A DNA stretch of 6,848 nt from PVC group bacterium (GCA_022560555.1 JADFSZ010000094.1:1-6848); one strand, 5' to 3'. Shown: positions 1-6,848, numbered from the stretch's first letter. Notes: generated by a model not told the origin, from the letters alone. A program made the numbers and translations.

Positions 1-5
1 GAAAT

Positions 6-1289
6 GTGAGCAAGGAGGACTTGCAACAGTTGGCTGAATCGTTAAATAAGAGCCTTGATGAATTGACGGCTGAAGATATTGCTTTGTTTTTAGGCGTTGA
101 AAATTTGTCCCCCGAGCAATTGGAAGCTTTTTTAGCTCATATGGGGGAGGATTACGAGGACTTAGGCCCACCGAGCGAAGCTTTACAAGAGTTGATGGGC
201 ATGGAGGAAACGATTATCGATCAACTCTCTGATTTGAGCGTTGAAGATCTTTTGACTTTGGACAGTCTCTTAGACGCGGAAATTAATGAATTATTAGGGA
301 CAGATTTATCAGCTGAAGCTATTGATATTATACTGGATACAATTGACGAGAGGACTCAAAACGCTTTGGAGGATTACCTTGATCTTCAAGCCATTCGGGA
401 TGACTTGGCGATGTTGCTTAGTGACATCTCTTTTAGTGATTTTGAAGCGGAATTGGCCATGCGAGAAGATTTTATGACGGGAAAAACATTGAGAGATCGC
501 TTTGGACGATTTGTGCGTAGTGAACAGTATGTTCTCAATAATTCTGATATTAATCAAATACAGATTGTTTCCGTGACGGCTCGTTTGGGTAGTTCTGGAA
601 AAGATGCGGGTGTTACAGCAACGTCTGTGAAGTTTAATTTTGATGATTTATCCGGAGTGTCCAATATTCGCACCGGTCTTCCGTGGAAAGATATATTGGG
701 CGTTGGACAACTAGGTCAGCGTATGCTAGTTACAAACGGTATTGAGTATTCAGATTTTGGGGATCCAGGGGCTGTGGCTCTATCGTCCGTCAAATTAGAA
801 ATGTTTAATCCTTTAGGAGATAATATCGCTATAAAGGACGTGTATCAGGGAGTAACAAATCCGGGAACTTTTGTTCAAGAAATTGATATGGGTAGCTCTT
901 CTCAAAAGGTGAATGGAGTACAAATTGATTCGCCGAGTAATCGGGAGTTTAAGGCGCAAAAGACGGCGGATCAAAACGGTTGGTTATGGTGGATGGGGTA
1001 CGATACCGGCGGTGGCGGATTTTCACCTTTAGATTCTGGTGATAAATACATTCAATTCCAGTTTTATTGGATTAATGATCAAGGAGATATTCAGGATGTC
1101 CAAACTGTTTTTGATGGTATTAACCCGGCCATTATGTCCGGAGATGGACCGATTCAAAATATTCAGGATATTTTGAATCCGGAATCAGGATTCAATCTGC
1201 AATTCCGTGTTACCAGTACGGAATTTCCGAACAATGAACACATTGATGCTGTTTTTGATCCGGCGCTCATAACACCCTATGTTAAATAA
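6..1289 (+). CDS. Hypothetical protein with a hyperacidic helical-repeat N-terminal region and an unassigned beta-type C-terminal domain; the 5' end may be truncated by the window
   Basis: The 427-codon ORF ends at TAA 1287-1289. The listed start is GTG at 6, but the frame has no stop back to nt 3, so the gene may continue upstream. An in-frame TTG at 30 lies 11 nt after a perfect AAGGAGG (12-18) and is an alternative start. In aa 1-157 I hand-count about 43 Asp/Glu against 5 Lys/Arg. From about aa 185 the sequence is rich in Gly/Gln/Asn/Ser/Trp (for example GWLWWMGYDTGGGGFSPLD). No signal peptide, TM segment or catalytic motif is recognisable. Confidence 0.75.
   Translation: MSKEDLQQLAESLNKSLDELTAEDIALFLGVENLSPEQLEAFLAHMGEDYEDLGPPSEALQELMGMEETIIDQLSDLSVEDLLTLDSLLDAEINELLGTDLSAEAIDIILDTIDERTQNALEDYLDLQAIRDDLAMLLSDISFSDFEAELAMREDFMTGKTLRDRFGRFVRSEQYVLNNSDINQIQIVSVTARLGSSGKDAGVTATSVKFNFDDLSGVSNIRTGLPWKDILGVGQLGQRMLVTNGIEYSDFGDPGAVALSSVKLEMFNPLGDNIAIKDVYQGVTNPGTFVQEIDMGSSSQKVNGVQIDSPSNREFKAQKTADQNGWLWWMGYDTGGGGFSPLDSGDKYIQFQFYWINDQGDIQDVQTVFDGINPAIMSGDGPIQNIQDILNPESGFNLQFRVTSTEFPNNEHIDAVFDPALITPYVK
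9..476 (+). repeat. Degenerate tandem peptide repeats (protein level) inside ORF1, motif L-[ST]-x-E-[DQA]-[LI]-x-x-[LFI]-L
   Basis: The copies read from the translation are SKEDLQQLAESL (aa 2-13), LTAEDIALFL (nt 63-92), LSPEQLEAFL (nt 105-134), PSEALQELMG, LSVEDLLTLDSLL (nt 234-272), LSAEAIDIILDTI (nt 306-344) and ISFSDFEAELAM. The similarity is at the amino-acid level only, and I see no strong DNA-level repeat. Confidence 0.6.
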
Positions 1290-1341
1290 TATATGTTGTT
1301 TACGTTGACACCAAAGCTTACTTCAAACCGAGTGACCGTGT

Positions 1342-1369
1342 TTTACTCTCCTTTTTGATTGGGTATAAT
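1342..1369 (+). promoter_or_regulatory. Candidate sigma70-type promoter for the kinase operon (TTTACT, 16-bp spacer, TATAAT)
   Basis: A consensus -10 hexamer TATAAT sits at 1364-1369. TTTACT at 1342-1347 matches TTGACA at 4 of 6 positions with a 16-bp spacer. It lies in the only sizeable intergenic gap (1290-1404), about 36 nt upstream of ATG 1405. This is motif matching by eye, so the transcription start is unknown. Confidence 0.35.
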
Positions 1370-1373
1370 ACCC
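1361..1373. promoter_or_regulatory. Perfect 6-1-6 inverted repeat GGGTAT-A-ATACCC overlapping the -10 box; possible operator
   Basis: The sequence gggtataataccc equals its own reverse complement except for the unpaired central base. It fully encloses TATAAT 1364-1369. The sequence observation is certain; a regulatory role is inferred. Confidence 0.3.
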
Positions 1374-1404
1374 TTCAATCCGCAATTCATGATATATATA
1401 GAAT

Positions 1405-2835
1405 ATGAATGACATTGTTGACTTTCTAAAAACAGTCCCCGCCTTCAAAGATCTAAACGAGATCAGTTTATCTCTTATCAATCTCAGGCTTGAAAGCGTT
1501 TCTTATAAAAAAAATGATTATATTATTCGATGCGGAGATGAAGCCGATGCTCTTTATTTGATGGATGACGGCTCTGCCGGTGTCCGGATCACCGTTGAGG
1601 GAAAAACAAAAGAAGTTTCGGTTTTAGAAAAGGGGGAAGTTTTCGGAGAAATGGCTCTATTGACAAATGAGCCGCGGTTTGCCGATGTCGTTGCGACAAC
1701 GGACGTTCACCTCTACCGTCTCACCAAAAAAGATTTTATAGATATTTGCACTAAATTTCCAAGCATTTCCAATTTCTTAACCCATCTTTTGGCTGATCGT
1801 CTCGGAGCTAAATCGGATGTCATGCTGAATAAAACTATCGGCAAATATCAAATCCTTCAGAAAATCGGTCAAGGAGGTATGGGGGTCATATTTAAAGGAG
1901 TTCATAAAGAGCTTAATCGCTTTGTGGCCATGAAAATGCTTCCGCATCCGTTTGTTTTTGATAAAGGTTATCTGAAAGGATTTAAAAGAGAAGCACTCAT
2001 AATATCAAAACTGAACCACCCTCATATCGTCCAAGTGTATGACACGGATTATGCCTACAACACGTATTTTATTATGATGGAATTGATCGAAGGGAATTCC
2101 CTTCGTGAAGTTTTAAGAGATCAAAGACGCATGAGTCCGATTATGACCGAAAAAATTGCCAGACAGCTCTGTGAAGCCCTTATTTATGCCCATCAAGCAG
2201 GTATCGTTCATCGGGATATTAAGCCGGAAAATATTATGATTGATGCTAAAGGACATATCAAATTGATGGATTTCGGGATTGCCCGCTCCTCTTACACGGC
2301 TGATACCAAAGATTGTATGGGCACCCCTGAATATATGTGTCCGGAAATTATCCGCGGAATCAATTCAGGACCAAAGGGGGATTATTATTCCTTGGGGGTT
2401 ACCTTGTATGAATTGCTAACCGGCCGTCCGCCGTATCAAGGAGACAATGTGATCTCTTTGACTATTCAGCAGCTAACGGAAGATCTTAAGGCTCCCGCGG
2501 ACATTGTTGCTGATGTTCCGATGCAATTGAATAACTTTATCATGAAGTGCCTTAAAACGGAGCCGAAAGAACGTTTGGATCGACTGGAAGATTTTCTTGA
2601 TGATGTGCCCATTCTTATGCAGGATGTGAAAAAAAATGATGATAAAGATTTGACACTGATGGATACAGTTTCCATTGATCAAGAATTAATGAAACCGGAT
2701 CTGAGTCCGGACGAAAAAGCGAAGCTTAAAGAGCATTGTCACAAAGTGATACTAAAAAGACTGACTCCCTTGGAAAGTCTTCCGCCGTTCCGGGATACTA
2801 TCAAAAAAATCCGAAAACTTTTGAAGGATATCTAG
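1405..2835 (+). CDS. Cyclic-nucleotide-binding domain fused to a Hanks-type (eukaryotic-like) Ser/Thr protein kinase
   Basis: The ORF is 476 aa, from ATG 1405 to TAG 2833-2835. The N-terminal part has CAP/PKA-type cNMP-binding hallmarks: IIRCGDEADALYLMDDG and the phosphate-binding cassette FGEMALLTNEPRFADVVA (1642-1695). The kinase motifs are all present. They are the G-loop GQGGMG (1867-1884), VAMK lysine (1933-1935), alpha-C Glu in FKREAL, HRDIKPEN (HRD 2209-2217), DFG (2269-2277), GTPEYMCPE and DYYSLG. No TM segment is visible. Confidence 0.93.
   Translation: MNDIVDFLKTVPAFKDLNEISLSLINLRLESVSYKKNDYIIRCGDEADALYLMDDGSAGVRITVEGKTKEVSVLEKGEVFGEMALLTNEPRFADVVATTDVHLYRLTKKDFIDICTKFPSISNFLTHLLADRLGAKSDVMLNKTIGKYQILQKIGQGGMGVIFKGVHKELNRFVAMKMLPHPFVFDKGYLKGFKREALIISKLNHPHIVQVYDTDYAYNTYFIMMELIEGNSLREVLRDQRRMSPIMTEKIARQLCEALIYAHQAGIVHRDIKPENIMIDAKGHIKLMDFGIARSSYTADTKDCMGTPEYMCPEIIRGINSGPKGDYYSLGVTLYELLTGRPPYQGDNVISLTIQQLTEDLKAPADIVADVPMQLNNFIMKCLKTEPKERLDRLEDFLDDVPILMQDVKKNDDKDLTLMDTVSIDQELMKPDLSPDEKAKLKEHCHKVILKRLTPLESLPPFRDTIKKIRKLLKDI
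1417..1800 (+). other. cNMP-binding (CAP/PKA-R-like beta-barrel) domain of the kinase, about aa 5-132
   Basis: The domain begins only 4 residues from the N-terminus. The conserved Gly/Glu/Arg of the phosphate-binding cassette are present. A C-helix-like segment (DFIDICTKFPSISNFLTHLLADRL) precedes a linker of about 15 aa into the kinase domain. Confidence 0.85.
1846..2598 (+). other. Protein kinase catalytic domain, about aa 148-398
   Basis: It runs from YQILQKIGQGGMG to KERLDRLEDFL. The catalytic residues appear intact, so it is predicted active rather than a pseudokinase. The activation segment DFGIARSSYTADTKDCMGTPE carries several Ser/Thr/Tyr residues. Confidence 0.9.
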
Positions 2836-2840
2836 TCCCC

Positions 2841-4352
2841 ATGTCTCTTCGGGCTCTTAACTTTCCTTTATCCGTCCCCAGAAATGTCGTGACCGTCATC
2901 ATCGGGTGTGTCTGGATTTTGATGATGGGGCATCTTGTCAAAACTGAGATTCATATTCAAAAAGACCGAACAGATAAAACATTTGTGACTAGTCCCATTA
3001 TCAGACCCTTTAATCAATGGATGGAGATATTTTATAAGGGGGAAAAATTGGGATATTCTCACACGGACTTGACGCAAATGGATAGAGAGGGAGAAACGAT
3101 GTTTTCGTTGTCCCATCGGACCCAGTTAAAAATGAAAGTTCTGGATGTGACCCAAAACATTAAGATGAGCGGATTTAGTTTTTTTGATGCGGAAGCCAGG
3201 CTGAAGAATTTTACTTTTTATGTTGATACCAAAAGCTACAAAATGGTTCTGAAGGGCGAGATGCATGACCAAGTATTGTCCGTTCATTTAAAAACAGGAC
3301 AATCAGAGCAGTCATTCGATCTGAATGTGCCGGAAAATATTATATTTTCGGAAGATATGAACTTTTTAATGACTCAGAAAAAATTTCGTCCCGGAGATCA
3401 CGGGCAATTCATTGTTTTTGATCCCATGGCGATGGGTCAATATGCATTGACCTATGACGTGTTAGAAAAAAAAGATGGTTTATTAAAGATCGAGTTTAAC
3501 TATCGCGGACTTTTAAGCTATGTGTGGCTCAATGAGCACCGGGAAATCGTTAAAGAAATCAATCCATTAGGCTGGGTCATGATTCGCTCTACACGTGAGG
3601 ATGCCTTAACAGACATGCCGGGAAATCTGGATTTAACGAATGCAACATCCATTCCTGTTACAAAAGAAATCCCCAATCCCCAAAACATTAAAAAACTTAC
3701 TCTCGGGATACAAGGAATCGACGCGGGGGTGTTACGGGATTTCCCTCCTAAAGAAATACAAAATATTGATGTCATTCAAAAACCTTCCGGAATTGAAATT
3801 ATTATTACCAAACCGGGCGAAAATGACCTTGAGATATTGAGAGAAATCGAAGAGCCTGACGAAGAAGCCATGAGCGTATATCTTAAAGGCGAAATACTGA
3901 TCCAAACCCAACACCCTTTGATCGTCTCAACCGCGCATGAGATTGTTGACACTGATTTAGATCTCTGGGGCGCGGCAAAAAAGATTAATGAATGGGTCTT
4001 TGACACACTCGAGAAAAAACCCGTCATATCCATTCCATCCGCGCTTGATGTGCTGAAATCGGGGTATGGAGATTGCAATGAACATACGGTCCTCTTTACC
4101 GCTCTCGCGCGCGCGAAAGGGATCCCGGTCATTCCGATCGTCGGACTTGTATTTTTGGATAATAAATTTTATTATCATGCTTGGCCGGCGGTCTATGTCG
4201 GTGAATGGATACAGATGGATCCGACCTTCGGACAAAATATTGCGGACACAACGCATATACCATTTTTTGCCGGGTCTCTTGAAGAGCAGGCGCGCATTGC
4301 GAGCCTTGTGGGCCGGATTCAAATTGAAGTAATAGACATTGTGAATGAGTGA
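2841..4352 (+). CDS. Membrane-anchored transglutaminase-like (Cys-His-Asp) superfamily protein
   Basis: The ORF track starts at 2736, which is a TTG overlapping the kinase by 100 nt. The first in-frame ATG is 2841, 5 nt after the kinase stop, with AAGGA at 2824-2828. This gives 503 aa. A single N-terminal hydrophobic helix VVTVIIGCVWILMMGHLV is encoded at 2886-2939. The C-terminal core reads GYGDCNEHTVLFTALARAKGIPV...YYHAWPAVY...QMDPTFG, with Cys codon 4074-4076, His 4176-4178 and Asp 4218-4220. Confidence 0.88.
   Translation: MSLRALNFPLSVPRNVVTVIIGCVWILMMGHLVKTEIHIQKDRTDKTFVTSPIIRPFNQWMEIFYKGEKLGYSHTDLTQMDREGETMFSLSHRTQLKMKVLDVTQNIKMSGFSFFDAEARLKNFTFYVDTKSYKMVLKGEMHDQVLSVHLKTGQSEQSFDLNVPENIIFSEDMNFLMTQKKFRPGDHGQFIVFDPMAMGQYALTYDVLEKKDGLLKIEFNYRGLLSYVWLNEHREIVKEINPLGWVMIRSTREDALTDMPGNLDLTNATSIPVTKEIPNPQNIKKLTLGIQGIDAGVLRDFPPKEIQNIDVIQKPSGIEIIITKPGENDLEILREIEEPDEEAMSVYLKGEILIQTQHPLIVSTAHEIVDTDLDLWGAAKKINEWVFDTLEKKPVISIPSALDVLKSGYGDCNEHTVLFTALARAKGIPVIPIVGLVFLDNKFYYHAWPAVYVGEWIQMDPTFGQNIADTTHIPFFAGSLEEQARIASLVGRIQIEVIDIVNE
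4044..4232 (+). other. Transglutaminase-core-like catalytic region
   Basis: The order and spacing of the G-x-C-x-x-H / HAW / DPT pattern is typical of the transglutaminase-like cysteine protease/transglutaminase fold. It sits at the extreme C-terminus of the protein. Confidence 0.85.
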
Positions 4353-5100
4353 GGCTCAGATGAAAAAACATATGATTGAAATCAGTAACATGACAAAATC
4401 TTTTGGTGAAAATACGGCTGTTGACAGACTAACTCTCAACGTGGCTCAAGGAGAATTTTTTTGTTTCCTGGGTCCTAACGGTGCCGGAAAAACGACAACG
4501 ATCAAAGTGTTAACAGGGTTATTATACCCGACCTCCGGGGAGGTCAAAATTGACGGCTTGGATATGAAAAAGGACCATGTGTCCGTTAAAAAGATCATGA
4601 GCTATATCCCGGATTTTCCGTATATTTTTGAAAAGTTAACGGGCCGTGAATTTTTAGAGTTTGTAGCACGTATGTATGATGTCCCTCCTGAATTATCCGA
4701 AGAGAGGATTCAGGAGTACTTGAAAATGTTTTCGTTGACAGACAGGGCCGATCATTTAATGGAAGACTATTCTCATGGCATGCGTCAAAAGATTGTTATC
4801 AGCGCGGCCATGATTCATGATCCCAAACTGATCATTGTCGATGAGCCCATGGTCGGGCTTGATCCCAAGGGGATCCGTCAAGTGAAAGACTTATTTAAAC
4901 AAAAGACCAAAGAAGGCGGGTGCGTTTTTATGTCCACGCATATCCTGTCTATGGCCGAAGAGCTCGCGGATCGCATAGGCATTATTCATCAGGGCCGATT
5001 GGTTGCTTTGGGTACGAGGGATGAGATTCTTGCGCGCGCCGAACACAAAAAAGACTTTGAGGAGATCTTCATGGCTCTCTCTGATGAAACGGAATCATAA
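4345..5100 (+). CDS. ABC transporter ATP-binding protein (ABC-2 / DrrA-CcmA-like subfamily)
   Basis: Walker A GPNGAGKTT is at 4471-4497. The signature variant SHGMRQ is at 4771-4788 and Walker B LIIVDE at 4828-4845. A Q-loop-like YIPDFPY and an H-loop STH are also present. The start is ambiguous. ATG 4345 overlaps the upstream stop by 8 nt. ATG 4360 has GAGG (4351-4354) 5 nt upstream. ATG 4372 would give the typical MIEISNM N-terminus. The stop is TAA 5098-5100. Confidence 0.93.
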   Translation: MSEAQMKKHMIEISNMTKSFGENTAVDRLTLNVAQGEFFCFLGPNGAGKTTTIKVLTGLLYPTSGEVKIDGLDMKKDHVSVKKIMSYIPDFPYIFEKLTGREFLEFVARMYDVPPELSEERIQEYLKMFSLTDRADHLMEDYSHGMRQKIVISAAMIHDPKLIIVDEPMVGLDPKGIRQVKDLFKQKTKEGGCVFMSTHILSMAEELADRIGIIHQGRLVALGTRDEILARAEHKKDFEEIFMALSDETES

Positions 5101-5118
5101 ATCACTTTGGAATAAAAT

Positions 5119-6804
5119 ATGGAATATCCCTTTTACGAAATTATTAAACTGAAATGCACTATTCTCAAAAACACAATTCTTTCCTTAAAGAAACAACCCC
5201 GTCTTAAAATCATTTTTATCAGTGTGTTTACTTTTTGTCTGGGTCTAGCCATTTACTTTTCCATGTATCGCGCCTTTAGTTTTGTGTACCAATTTCCGGG
5301 TTTTGGCGAGTTTTTACTTGACCGGCTTCTTTATTTATTTTTCTTTTCCCTTCTGTTGATGCTGATTATGAGCAGTGCCGTCACAAGTTATATGACATTG
5401 TTTCGATCAAAAATAAATGAACATCTTTTTGTCCTTCCCATACATTACAGAACGGTATGGAGTGTCCGGTTTTTTGATACTCTTGTTTATAGCTCGTGGG
5501 CATCACTGTTTTTGGTGCTGCCTCTCATTCTTTCGTATGGCCAAATTCGTCACGCAAGCGGACTATTTTATTGTATGGGGTTTTTGGTGATACTTCCCTT
5601 TCTTGTGCTGGCAGGCGGAGTGGGAACTTTAGCGGCGAGTCTGCTTGTCCGTTTAAGTCAGGCCCATCGAAACACCCTGCGTACGATATTGATCGGGACG
5701 CTTGCTATCGCCGGCATAGCTCTATTGTGTTGGACGCGGATTTGGAGACAAGAGCCCTCCGGTCATGGAACGGAGCTTGTGATCTTGAATAAAATCTTAT
5801 CTCACACGGCATTCACGCAAAATCCATTTTTGCCGAGCTATTGGTTGAGCCAAGGCCTCATTGATGTCTTAAAGGGATCCCTAAAGCAATCCATGGTTTA
5901 TTTCGGTCTCATATGTATCAATGCCGCGCTGATTTTTCAAATCAATTATCATGCGGGAGGGAATTTTTATTACCGGATCTGGGAAAACGCGAGTTTTCAT
6001 AAGAAAATGAAAAGATTCAGGAGCTCTTTTTATGCACGGCTTGAGCTCTTATTCGGGTTTGTAAACAGCCATATTCGCCAACTGATGATCAAAGATATAA
6101 AATCATTTGTCAGGGATCCGGTCCAGTGGACACAGTTTTTGATCTTTTTCGGACTACTGGGTATATATATCGCGAACTTAAAGCAAATGCCGTATCAAAT
6201 CGAAACCATGTTTTGGAAGGTTATTATCTTGTTTTTAAATCTGGCTTCAACGGCTATGGTTTTAGCGACATTGACAACCCGTTTTGTCTTTCCCCTGTAT
6301 AGTATGGAAGGGAGGCGGTTCTGGATCATCGGTATGATGCCGATAAAAAAGAGCTGGATTTTGTGGGAAAAGTTTTTTCTCTCGTTTATTAGTGTGACTC
6401 TGATAACAGAGTTTCTTATTGTTCTATCCAACATCATGCTGGATTCCCCGAAAGATATCATGCTTTTTACTTGTTATGGCGTTTTTCTTATTAGTTTGGC
6501 TTTAACGGGGCTTTCTGTCGGGATGGGTGTTCTTTTTCCTAATTTCCAGGATGAGAATCCGTCAAAGATCGTATCCGGATTCGGAGGAACCCTCGTTTTA
6601 TTATTGAGCCTCACTTATATCATTTTGATGGTGGCTTTTATGATGATGCCGGTCTATATGTATTATGTCAAAGACGCCCTGACGCACAAATTGTACGGAT
6701 TTTGGATCTTAGTTGTTGCCTTGATGTGTACACTCGTTAGTATTATAATGGGCCTTGTTCCCATGCTTCTCGGGATCAAACGTTTAGAAAAACTTGAATA
6801 TTGA
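5119..6804 (+). CDS. Large polytopic membrane protein; putative fused (internally duplicated) ABC-2-type exporter permease
   Basis: The 561-aa ORF starts 18 nt after the ATPase gene. About a dozen hydrophobic segments are readable by eye. The two halves share a motif after their second TM segment: LPIHYRTVWSVRFF (5434-5475) and MPIKKSWILWEKFF (6337-6378). The permease role is inferred from position next to the ATPase and from topology, not from a recognised family signature. Confidence 0.75.
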   Translation: MEYPFYEIIKLKCTILKNTILSLKKQPRLKIIFISVFTFCLGLAIYFSMYRAFSFVYQFPGFGEFLLDRLLYLFFFSLLLMLIMSSAVTSYMTLFRSKINEHLFVLPIHYRTVWSVRFFDTLVYSSWASLFLVLPLILSYGQIRHASGLFYCMGFLVILPFLVLAGGVGTLAASLLVRLSQAHRNTLRTILIGTLAIAGIALLCWTRIWRQEPSGHGTELVILNKILSHTAFTQNPFLPSYWLSQGLIDVLKGSLKQSMVYFGLICINAALIFQINYHAGGNFYYRIWENASFHKKMKRFRSSFYARLELLFGFVNSHIRQLMIKDIKSFVRDPVQWTQFLIFFGLLGIYIANLKQMPYQIETMFWKVIILFLNLASTAMVLATLTTRFVFPLYSMEGRRFWIIGMMPIKKSWILWEKFFLSFISVTLITEFLIVLSNIMLDSPKDIMLFTCYGVFLISLALTGLSVGMGVLFPNFQDENPSKIVSGFGGTLVLLLSLTYIILMVAFMMMPVYMYYVKDALTHKLYGFWILVVALMCTLVSIIMGLVPMLLGIKRLEKLEY

Positions 6805-6811
6805 GCCGTCC

Positions 6812-6848
6812 ATGAAATCTCTCATAGAAATTCTTGAAAACACAGCCC
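6812..6848 (+). CDS. Start of a further co-directional ORF (MKSLIEILENTA...), truncated by the window end
   Basis: ATG 6812 lies 7 nt after the permease stop (TGA 6802-6804), and the frame stays open to the window edge. Only 12 codons are visible, so no function can be assigned. Confidence 0.3.
   Translation, partial: MKSLIEILENTA

Follow-up and report, generated by a model that had tools for sequence, protein, structure and literature searches.

Several central machines of envelope biogenesis belong to those ATP-binding cassette (ABC) transporters whose partner is a bitopic periplasmic protein (Lpt, Mla, Lol, FtsEX, Nos, Ccm). LptB2FG-LptC and MlaFEDB each combine an ATPase, a polytopic permease and a one-helix protein with a periplasmic beta-rich domain, all encoded together. 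A locus of comparable design was analysed here in a 6,848-nucleotide (nt) stretch of DNA from a PVC group bacterium (GCA_022560555.1, JADFSZ010000094.1:1-6848; 'the window' refers to this whole stretch). It carries genes for a transglutaminase-like protein, an ABC ATPase and a PF16949 permease (the trio), preceded by a gene for a cyclic nucleotide monophosphate (cNMP)-binding Hanks Ser/Thr kinase (Table 1). An initial annotation of the window had joined all four genes into one cassette, in which a cyclic-nucleotide signal would be passed on by phosphorylation to an envelope-acting thiol enzyme and an export pump. Judged by gene order in other genomes, the transglutaminase-like gene, the ATPase gene and the PF16949 permease gene are a real and widespread module, present in many bacterial phyla and apparently uncharacterised so far, and the functional unit is probably this three-gene envelope module, not a four-gene signalling cassette.

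The likeness to Lpt and Mla lies in design only: the trio's proteins have no sequence or fold match to LptC or MCE domains, the permease probably has the ABC-2 (type V) fold and, unlike the trio, neither of these complexes has a catalytic transglutaminase-like domain. NosDFY, CcmAB and GldAFG would share the ABC-2 fold class, with NosY and CcmB among the structural matches of the permease and GldA among the sequence matches of the ATPase (189.7 bits with the GldA model, cut-off 402.6), but the trio has no homologues of NosD, NosL, GldF, GldG or CcmC/D, and its permease is a single 12-helix PF16949 chain. The mycobacterial efflux pump Rv1217c-Rv1218c also pairs a single-chain permease of about 12 helices (chain length 509) with a separate ATPase, but it has no accessory protein or enzyme and its permease has no detectable sequence kinship to that of the trio. 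In PknF-Rv1747 a kinase gene adjoins that of an ABC exporter of the ABCG-like class, whose FHA domains read phosphorylation. TgpA of Pseudomonas aeruginosa, as predicted also for the window's transglutaminase-like protein, is an inner-membrane protein with a periplasmic PF01841 domain (PMC3507681, PMC10318531), although its N-terminal architecture is different. The LapG/LapD/LapEBC system brings together a periplasmic transglutaminase-like cysteine protease, cytoplasmic second-messenger control and a nearby ABC exporter (PMC10990149), but the ABC part of the trio is of the ABC-2 type, not type I secretion, and the messenger domain here is a cNMP-binding one on the kinase.

Synteny of the three-gene module

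Eighty loci centred on transglutaminase-like genes, taken from species-representative genomes and fetched with the alignment of homologues, were searched with the window's proteins. Neighbour counts are based on tblastn and hidden Markov model (HMM) searches, and synteny fractions were taken over the 63 loci with at least 3.5 kb of downstream sequence. In 49 of the 63, the ATPase gene and then the PF16949 permease gene follow directly on the same strand, a strong and wide synteny that bears out the grouping of these three genes in the initial annotation. Trio-carrying loci bear at least 10 phylum-level labels, among them Omnitrophota, Nitrospirota, Desulfobacterota, Verrucomicrobiota (including Kiritimatiellia and Lentisphaerae), Acidobacteriota, NC10, Binatia, Hydrogenedentes, WOR-3 and Ignavibacteria. 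The phyla of the labelled carriers are all generally regarded as diderm. The transglutaminase-like gene with the permease gene only was seen at two of the 63 loci; this form occurs in Poribacteria and Abyssobacteria, and an ATPase-only form in Planctomycetia. When all neighbouring open reading frames (ORFs) were clustered, these three families were the only conserved ones, the next commonest (SecA) occurring at eight loci, and no gene family was conserved 3′ of the permease gene among 84 loci. In several lineages the trio forms a single cassette beside housekeeping genes (secA, smc). A literature search found no published description of a transglutaminase-like/ATPase/PF16949 permease module.

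Several loci show variations on this order. In L006, L007, L018 and L022 (Poribacteria, Abyssobacteria and two metagenome-assembled genomes (MAGs) labelled only 'bacterium'), the permease gene directly follows the transglutaminase-like gene with no ATPase gene between them, and none was found on the available sequence (up to 10 kb either side). In L005 (12399-13880), L172 (9674-12173) and L173, the transglutaminase-like gene and ATPase gene are followed by a gene for a B12-binding radical S-adenosylmethionine enzyme, in L172 also by a glycosyltransferase gene, and there is no adjacent permease gene; the window protein has two of its closest relatives (34% identity) in L005 and in P0004, the latter on contigs L172/L173. 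The secA gene lies directly 5′ of the transglutaminase-like gene in several phyla (8 of 84 clustered loci; these include L006, L018, L022, L031, L043, L044 and L061), and a small YjbQ/UPF0047-like gene follows the permease gene in L094, L100 and L167. These neighbours may point to a link with secretion, or merely to inherited gene order. Two trio contigs, L044 and L012, come from MAGs whose labels, 'Bathyarchaeia archaeon' and 'Enterobacteriaceae', probably reflect errors of binning or labelling.

The N-terminal region of the accessory protein as conserved link

The reverse test started from 80 metagenome loci centred on permease homologues. Of the 55 that extended far enough upstream, just 3 carry a full transglutaminase-like gene. 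In many of these permease-centred loci the same slot, just 5′ of the ATPase gene, is filled by a gene for a protein of about 285 amino acids (aa) without the enzyme core. In alignment the short proteins cover residues ~14-250 of the window protein, the stretch with the membrane helix and beta-rich domain, and a profile-profile comparison matched them over residues 11-257 (hhalign probability 100%, E 3.2e-40). With HMMs, a homologue of this N-terminal region was found exactly one ATPase gene 5′ of the permease gene at 30 of 62 permease-centred loci, and most of these 30 accessory homologues are about 285 aa long and have no enzyme core. A profile of the N-terminal region gave 4213 matches at E <= 0.001 among 1.84 billion representative proteins. 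The best 150 of these include 85 proteins of about 500 aa with the DCxEH enzyme motif and 52 of at most 330 aa without it.

Since short homologues without the enzyme occupy the same slot, the conserved partner of the transporter appears to be the membrane helix plus beta-barrel, and not the enzyme core, a point that the initial annotation had missed. The shared slot and N-terminal homology likewise suggest that the window protein is an accessory subunit that gained a periplasmic Cys-His-Asp domain; judging by its distribution among homologues, the transglutaminase-like core was added at the C-terminus in one large subfamily. Accessory homologues of a length intermediate between the short and enzyme-bearing proteins, about 410 aa (measured stop to stop), were identified in L101 (3740-5020), L114 (3771-4997) and L166 (3897-5132), where the extra region had no Pfam match, and the family may include further C-terminal modules. 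A longer conserved block is shared by L096, L116, L124, L135, L156 and similar metagenome loci, consisting of genes for a TPR+LysM protein, the short accessory protein, ATPase and permease, followed by those for two membrane proteins, one coiled-coil and one small, and for an MGMT-like methyltransferase.

The transglutaminase-like protein

A total of 2183 homologues of the 503-aa protein were found, more than 2,000 of them full-length, at about 30% identity; outside its own population the next-best is 34% identical. PF01841 (Transglut_core; 3.7e-15, 56.6 bits against a cut-off of 23, residues 364-461) was the only family matched in a Pfam scan at E 0.01. The AlphaFold2 model (mean pLDDT 90.1) consists of a long membrane helix, a beta-rich domain, a small linker domain and the transglutaminase core. 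Cys412, His446 and Asp460, the putative catalytic triad, are invariant in an alignment of 28 sequences; in one of 61 sequences Cys412 and His446 are invariant and Asp460 nearly so (at least 90%). The flanks of the membrane helix differ in charge (+2.1 on the N side vs +0.35 on the C side), which by the positive-inside rule places the N-terminus inside and the barrel and enzyme domain in the periplasm, where the bulk of the accessory protein is predicted to lie.

Among solved structures, those closest to the core are 3isr (a putative cysteine protease), TglA, PNGase and two pseudomurein endoisopeptidases, PeiP and PeiW, all matched with Foldseek. Weak matches to Transglut_core3, the family of lasso-peptide B proteins, were obtained for 60 of 61 family members. 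The beta domain matched the beta-barrel-like proteins 6ntr (DUF1849) and 2h1t (DUF1089), and some family members have weak Pfam matches to DUF3108 and DUF6134, the former described with a YmcC fold (PMC4364669).

ATPase and permease

The ATPase (ABC_tran, 7.7e-29 in Pfam) is 45-58% identical to the ATPases encoded after transglutaminase-like genes elsewhere, and its NCBIfam matches, to lantibiotic-protection and phenol-soluble modulin (PSM)-export ATPases, are below the cut-offs of those models. Its signature motif (window ~4770-4800, residues ~142-150) reads YSHGMRQK, with the same His in the homologue from L011; DrrA-type ATPases usually have YSGGM(R/K) at this position.

The permease matches PF16949 over residues 28-560 (7.2e-139, 464.5 bits against a cut-off of 25.7) and has about 11-12 membrane helices; the AlphaFold2 model (pLDDT 84.8) consists entirely of helices, and its two halves repeat each other. 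Foldseek matches include the ABC-2 (type V) permeases Rv1217c, ABCG2, Wzm, NosY, PmtCD and CcmB, with probabilities of ~0.8-0.99 and E-values of 0.05 or worse. The best full-length match is Rv1217c (PDB 8k1p; 524 aligned columns, TM-score 0.45), again with a weak E-value, and low-probability matches to MurJ and MATE proteins were also returned. No match was found in a PDB sequence search, nor to any NCBIfam model at E 0.01. The periplasmic loops are short and strongly conserved (invariant P239 and W242; 392-402; 480-491). As the permease has no large periplasmic domain of its own, the accessory protein would supply one.

The kinase is a lineage-specific neighbour

The kinase protein carries an N-terminal cNMP-binding domain (PF00027, cNMP_binding; 9.7e-23, 80.4 bits against a cut-off of 27.5, residues 32-116) and a Pkinase domain (7.6e-63, 212.8 bits, residues 148-392), and no membrane helix is predicted. 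Invariant or almost invariant positions in a 15-member alignment of the kinase family include K177, E196, H269-R270-D271 and D289-F290-G291, together with G81, E82 and R91 of the cNMP site, and the kinase looks catalytically intact. Proteins of about 450-500 aa with these two domains make up a populous family (Planctomycetota, Riflebacteria, Myxococcales and others), in which the best match outside the window's own population is 41% identical.

No Hanks kinase was identified within 10 kb in the 80 transglutaminase-centred loci, and none adjacent in the 80 permease-centred loci, where L118 and L139 gave only weak kinase matches, on the opposite strand about 4-6 kb downstream. The two closest transglutaminase-like homologues with contigs read (P0004 and P0007, 32-34% identical) have no kinase neighbour, and the loci of four kinase homologues have no transglutaminase or ABC neighbours, their contexts being unrelated and mutually different. 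The proposal that the kinase forms part of the system and accompanies it across divergent lineages has therefore failed outside this lineage: by synteny, the kinase is a lineage-specific neighbour outside the conserved module. In the window it is probably co-transcribed with the trio, given the 5-nt gap and what is generally known of operon spacing. A link from cNMP via phosphorylation to the envelope rests on adjacency in one species-level population, and functional kinase adjacency is at present only a lead. As the enzyme domain is predicted to be periplasmic, a cytoplasmic kinase would have access only to the ATPase, to the permease on its cytoplasmic side, which includes a linker at about residues 281-363, and to the ~15-aa N-terminal tail of the accessory protein.

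Gene organisation of the window

Table 1 Genes, domains and signals of the window; positions are counted from its first letter.
Feature	Position	Strand	Product	Description
Promoter-like site TTTACT-16-TATAAT	1342-1369	+		upstream of kinase gene; 10/12 consensus positions
Kinase gene	1405-2835	+	476 aa	soluble cNMP-binding Hanks Ser/Thr kinase
Transglutaminase-like gene	2841-4352	+	503 aa	bitopic accessory protein plus enzyme domain
N-terminal membrane helix	2880-2972	+	residues 14-44	family motif FWxxMMxxLxRxE
Periplasmic beta-barrel domain (predicted)	3009-3590	+	residues 57-250	similar to YmcC/DUF3108/DUF1849
Transglutaminase-like core	3915-4349	+	residues 359-503	
Cys412 codon	4074-4076	+		putative catalytic triad
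His446 codon	4176-4178	+		putative catalytic triad
Asp460 codon	4218-4220	+		putative catalytic triad
ATPase gene	4345-5100	+	251 aa from first ATG	ABC-2/DrrA-type
Permease gene	5119-6804	+	561 aa	PF16949 (ABC_tran_2)
Fifth gene, start only	6812-6848	+		ATG at 6812; begins MKSLIEILENTA

ORF calls confirmed four complete genes on the + strand and, after them, the start of a fifth, and the assignments made in the initial annotation (cNMP-binding, Hanks kinase, transglutaminase-like, ABC ATPase and permease) hold in the Pfam scan. Nothing points to membership of the fifth gene in the module. Read off the sequence, the kinase/transglutaminase-like, ATPase/permease and permease/fifth gene junctions are +5 nt (2836-2840), +18 nt (5101-5118) and +7 nt (6805-6811), exactly as previously given, but the -8 nt overlap given for the transglutaminase-like and ATPase genes hinges on an uncertain start, as it takes the first ATG (4345) to be that of the ATPase gene. 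This junction is -8, +7 or +19 nt for ATG 4345, 4360 or 4372, and is tight whichever is used. A GAGG lies 5 nt before ATG 4360; on the near-identical contig L085 the gene was called from ATG 4372 (242 aa), and homologue alignments begin there too.

No terminator-like site was found at any of the junctions in the window scan, in agreement with the earlier reading; the + strand sites in the 1342-6848 span (4133-4145 and 6396-6413) are both intragenic. The genes look operonic, consistent with the single transcription unit proposed. The promoter-like element described upstream of the kinase gene is indeed present, but it weighs little, because the window, with 22 such sites, shows no enrichment over shuffled sequence (15.8 +/- 3.5), and several others on the + strand lie inside genes. 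The scan identified no Rfam RNA and no tRNA, and the only repeats were short two-copy matches.

The arrangement is kept on two contigs from assemblies of other samples, L001 (98.7% identity over window 197-4790) and L085 (97.7% identity over window 2798-6848). Both belong to the same population and are therefore not independent evolutionary evidence. Window 1-196 does not align to L001, although the remainder is 98.7% identical, suggesting a variable region or an assembly difference. The ORF upstream of the kinase gene (6-1289) has no Pfam match of its own and a very acidic N-terminal end, and appears to be the C-terminal 427 aa of a 682-aa FecR-domain protein called on L001 (694-2742).

Comparison with named systems

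The exclusion of lasso-peptide, TgpA/MoxR, Gld and CBASS/Pycsar systems in the initial annotation was upheld, and the cluster lacks what defines each of the named systems compared. Lasso-peptide clusters have an Asn-synthetase-like cyclase, a precursor peptide and a McjD-type fused ABC exporter beside the B protease; no cyclase is encoded in the window or by conserved neighbours, and the ABC system here is a split ABC-2 one. For the Gld gliding transporter, the ATPase falls below the GldA cut-off and no window gene matches GldF or GldG. The window lacks the MoxR and DUF58 genes of TgpA clusters, as do nearly all related loci: searches of 164 loci (L001-L084, L089-L168) with the L174 proteins found the two together in none, and a lone MoxR match in L047 and L109. 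They occur together only in L174 (2158-11415), where the trio lies within a MoxR-DUF58-[trio]-...-BatA-BatA-TPR cluster resembling the Bat/aerotolerance operon and the TgpA context.

The Lap system was rejected since the window protein has no BTLCP match and the Pfam scan found no LapD-type receptor or GGDEF, EAL or HAMP domain, and an exporter of the PknF-Rv1747 type since neither ATPase nor permease has an FHA match and the kinase adjacency is not conserved. PADLOC matches of the kinase to defence kinases (PD-T4-6, MADS MAD6, BREX PglW) cover the generic kinase domain only, the kinase falls below the cut-offs of the MAD6 (159.9 vs 460) and PglW (108.9 vs 990) models, and its neighbours gave no defence matches beyond generic ATPase similarity. 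With similarity of this generic kinase/ATPase kind only, and the trio beside housekeeping genes, a defence system was likewise rejected.

Functional interpretation

In the three-gene module, an ATPase dimer and a single 12-helix PF16949 permease would make up a type-V (ABC-2) transporter, presumably directed outwards, with the transglutaminase-like protein as its bitopic accessory subunit. The conserved accessory helix would dock onto the permease inside the membrane, the periplasmic beta-barrel would receive or hold the transported molecule, and the Cys-His-Asp domain may cleave or transamidate an amide bond, either of the exported substrate or of some component of the envelope. The kinase, if it regulates the module at all, would act on its cytoplasmic part. 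More tentatively, and as a possibility that we would not yet expect to hold, the trio might be an unrecognised envelope machine, a type-V ABC transporter with a dedicated bitopic beta-barrel subunit in which ATP-driven extraction or export is directly coupled to covalent processing, here also under cNMP and Ser/Thr-phosphorylation control. The accessory proteins would then be a new family of about 4,200 clusters at 50% identity, with the thiol enzyme in more than half of its best-matching members.

Several observations weigh against the three-gene module as the functional unit. At 6 of the 63 transglutaminase-centred loci the transglutaminase-like gene has an ATPase gene but no adjacent permease gene, and at another 6 it stands alone, with neither. 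An adjacent accessory gene is missing from about half of the permease-centred loci, so the permease family is not obligately tied to the accessory protein in gene order, and 25 of 55 have neither a transglutaminase-like gene nor an ATPase gene directly 5′. The E-values of the permease's structural matches are weak, and the beta-barrel relatives (DUF1849, DUF1089, DUF3108) are themselves uncharacterised. The 5-nt junction is also compatible with a real regulatory link to the kinase, in a lineage that has no close relatives in the databases.

That link is central to the idea of one four-gene cassette, in which a cNMP-activated kinase phosphorylates the ATPase, the permease or the accessory tail and so controls envelope remodelling or export. 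Mycobacterium tuberculosis PknF, which regulates the neighbouring ABC exporter Rv1747, provides a precedent, the kinase and cNMP-site residues are intact, no terminator- or promoter-like site separates the kinase stop from the transglutaminase start 5 nt away, and the kinase-trio arrangement is kept in the second assembly (L001). However, L001 represents the same species-level population and is not independent, no kinase is adjacent in 160 related loci or beside P0004 and P0007, and the four kinase homologues have other neighbours. In addition, the Pfam scan found no FHA or other phospho-binding domain in the transporter, and the predicted periplasmic enzyme domain would be beyond a cytoplasmic kinase, making this cassette unlikely in our judgement. 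A quite unlikely alternative is that the ABC complex moves no substrate and that ATP-driven conformational change instead switches the periplasmic thiol enzyme, in the manner of FtsEX, which switches cell-wall hydrolases, or CcmAB, which serves the release of holo-CcmE. The highly conserved membrane helix (FWxxMMxxLxRxE), the short yet strongly conserved periplasmic loops of the permease and the presence of PeiP and PeiW, both cell-wall isopeptidases, among the structural neighbours of the core would suit such a switch, but true exporters, and not only CcmB and NosY, have the fold class predicted for the permease, and enzyme switching cannot be the general role of the transporter, since about a third of the accessory family carries no enzyme domain.

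A role in peptide export, maturation or immunity, with the papain-fold enzyme trimming or destroying a peptide handled by the ABC-2 pump, would resemble peptidase-containing ABC transporter (PCAT) exporters, LanFEG-type immunity pumps or a degenerate lasso-peptide cluster. It agrees with the sub-threshold resemblance of the ATPase to lantibiotic-protection and PSM-export ATPases, with PmtCD among the structural matches of the permease and with the weak Transglut_core3 matches. No cyclase or biosynthetic gene was found, however, in the window (Pfam, five proteins) or conserved in 84 loci, small precursor ORFs not having been searched for; the module is a single cassette near housekeeping genes across many phyla, and the predicted periplasmic location of the enzyme differs from that of the proteases in PCAT exporters and lasso clusters. 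We regard a peptide role as very unlikely.

As a three-gene envelope module, the trio would be another pairing of a transporter with a bitopic partner, kept in many mostly uncultured phyla, in which the partner often has a catalytic transglutaminase-like domain. Three 'hypothetical' annotations would thereby become one testable unit. If the adjacency of the kinase is functional, it would provide one of the few bacterial cases of a cNMP-gated Hanks kinase whose target can be identified.

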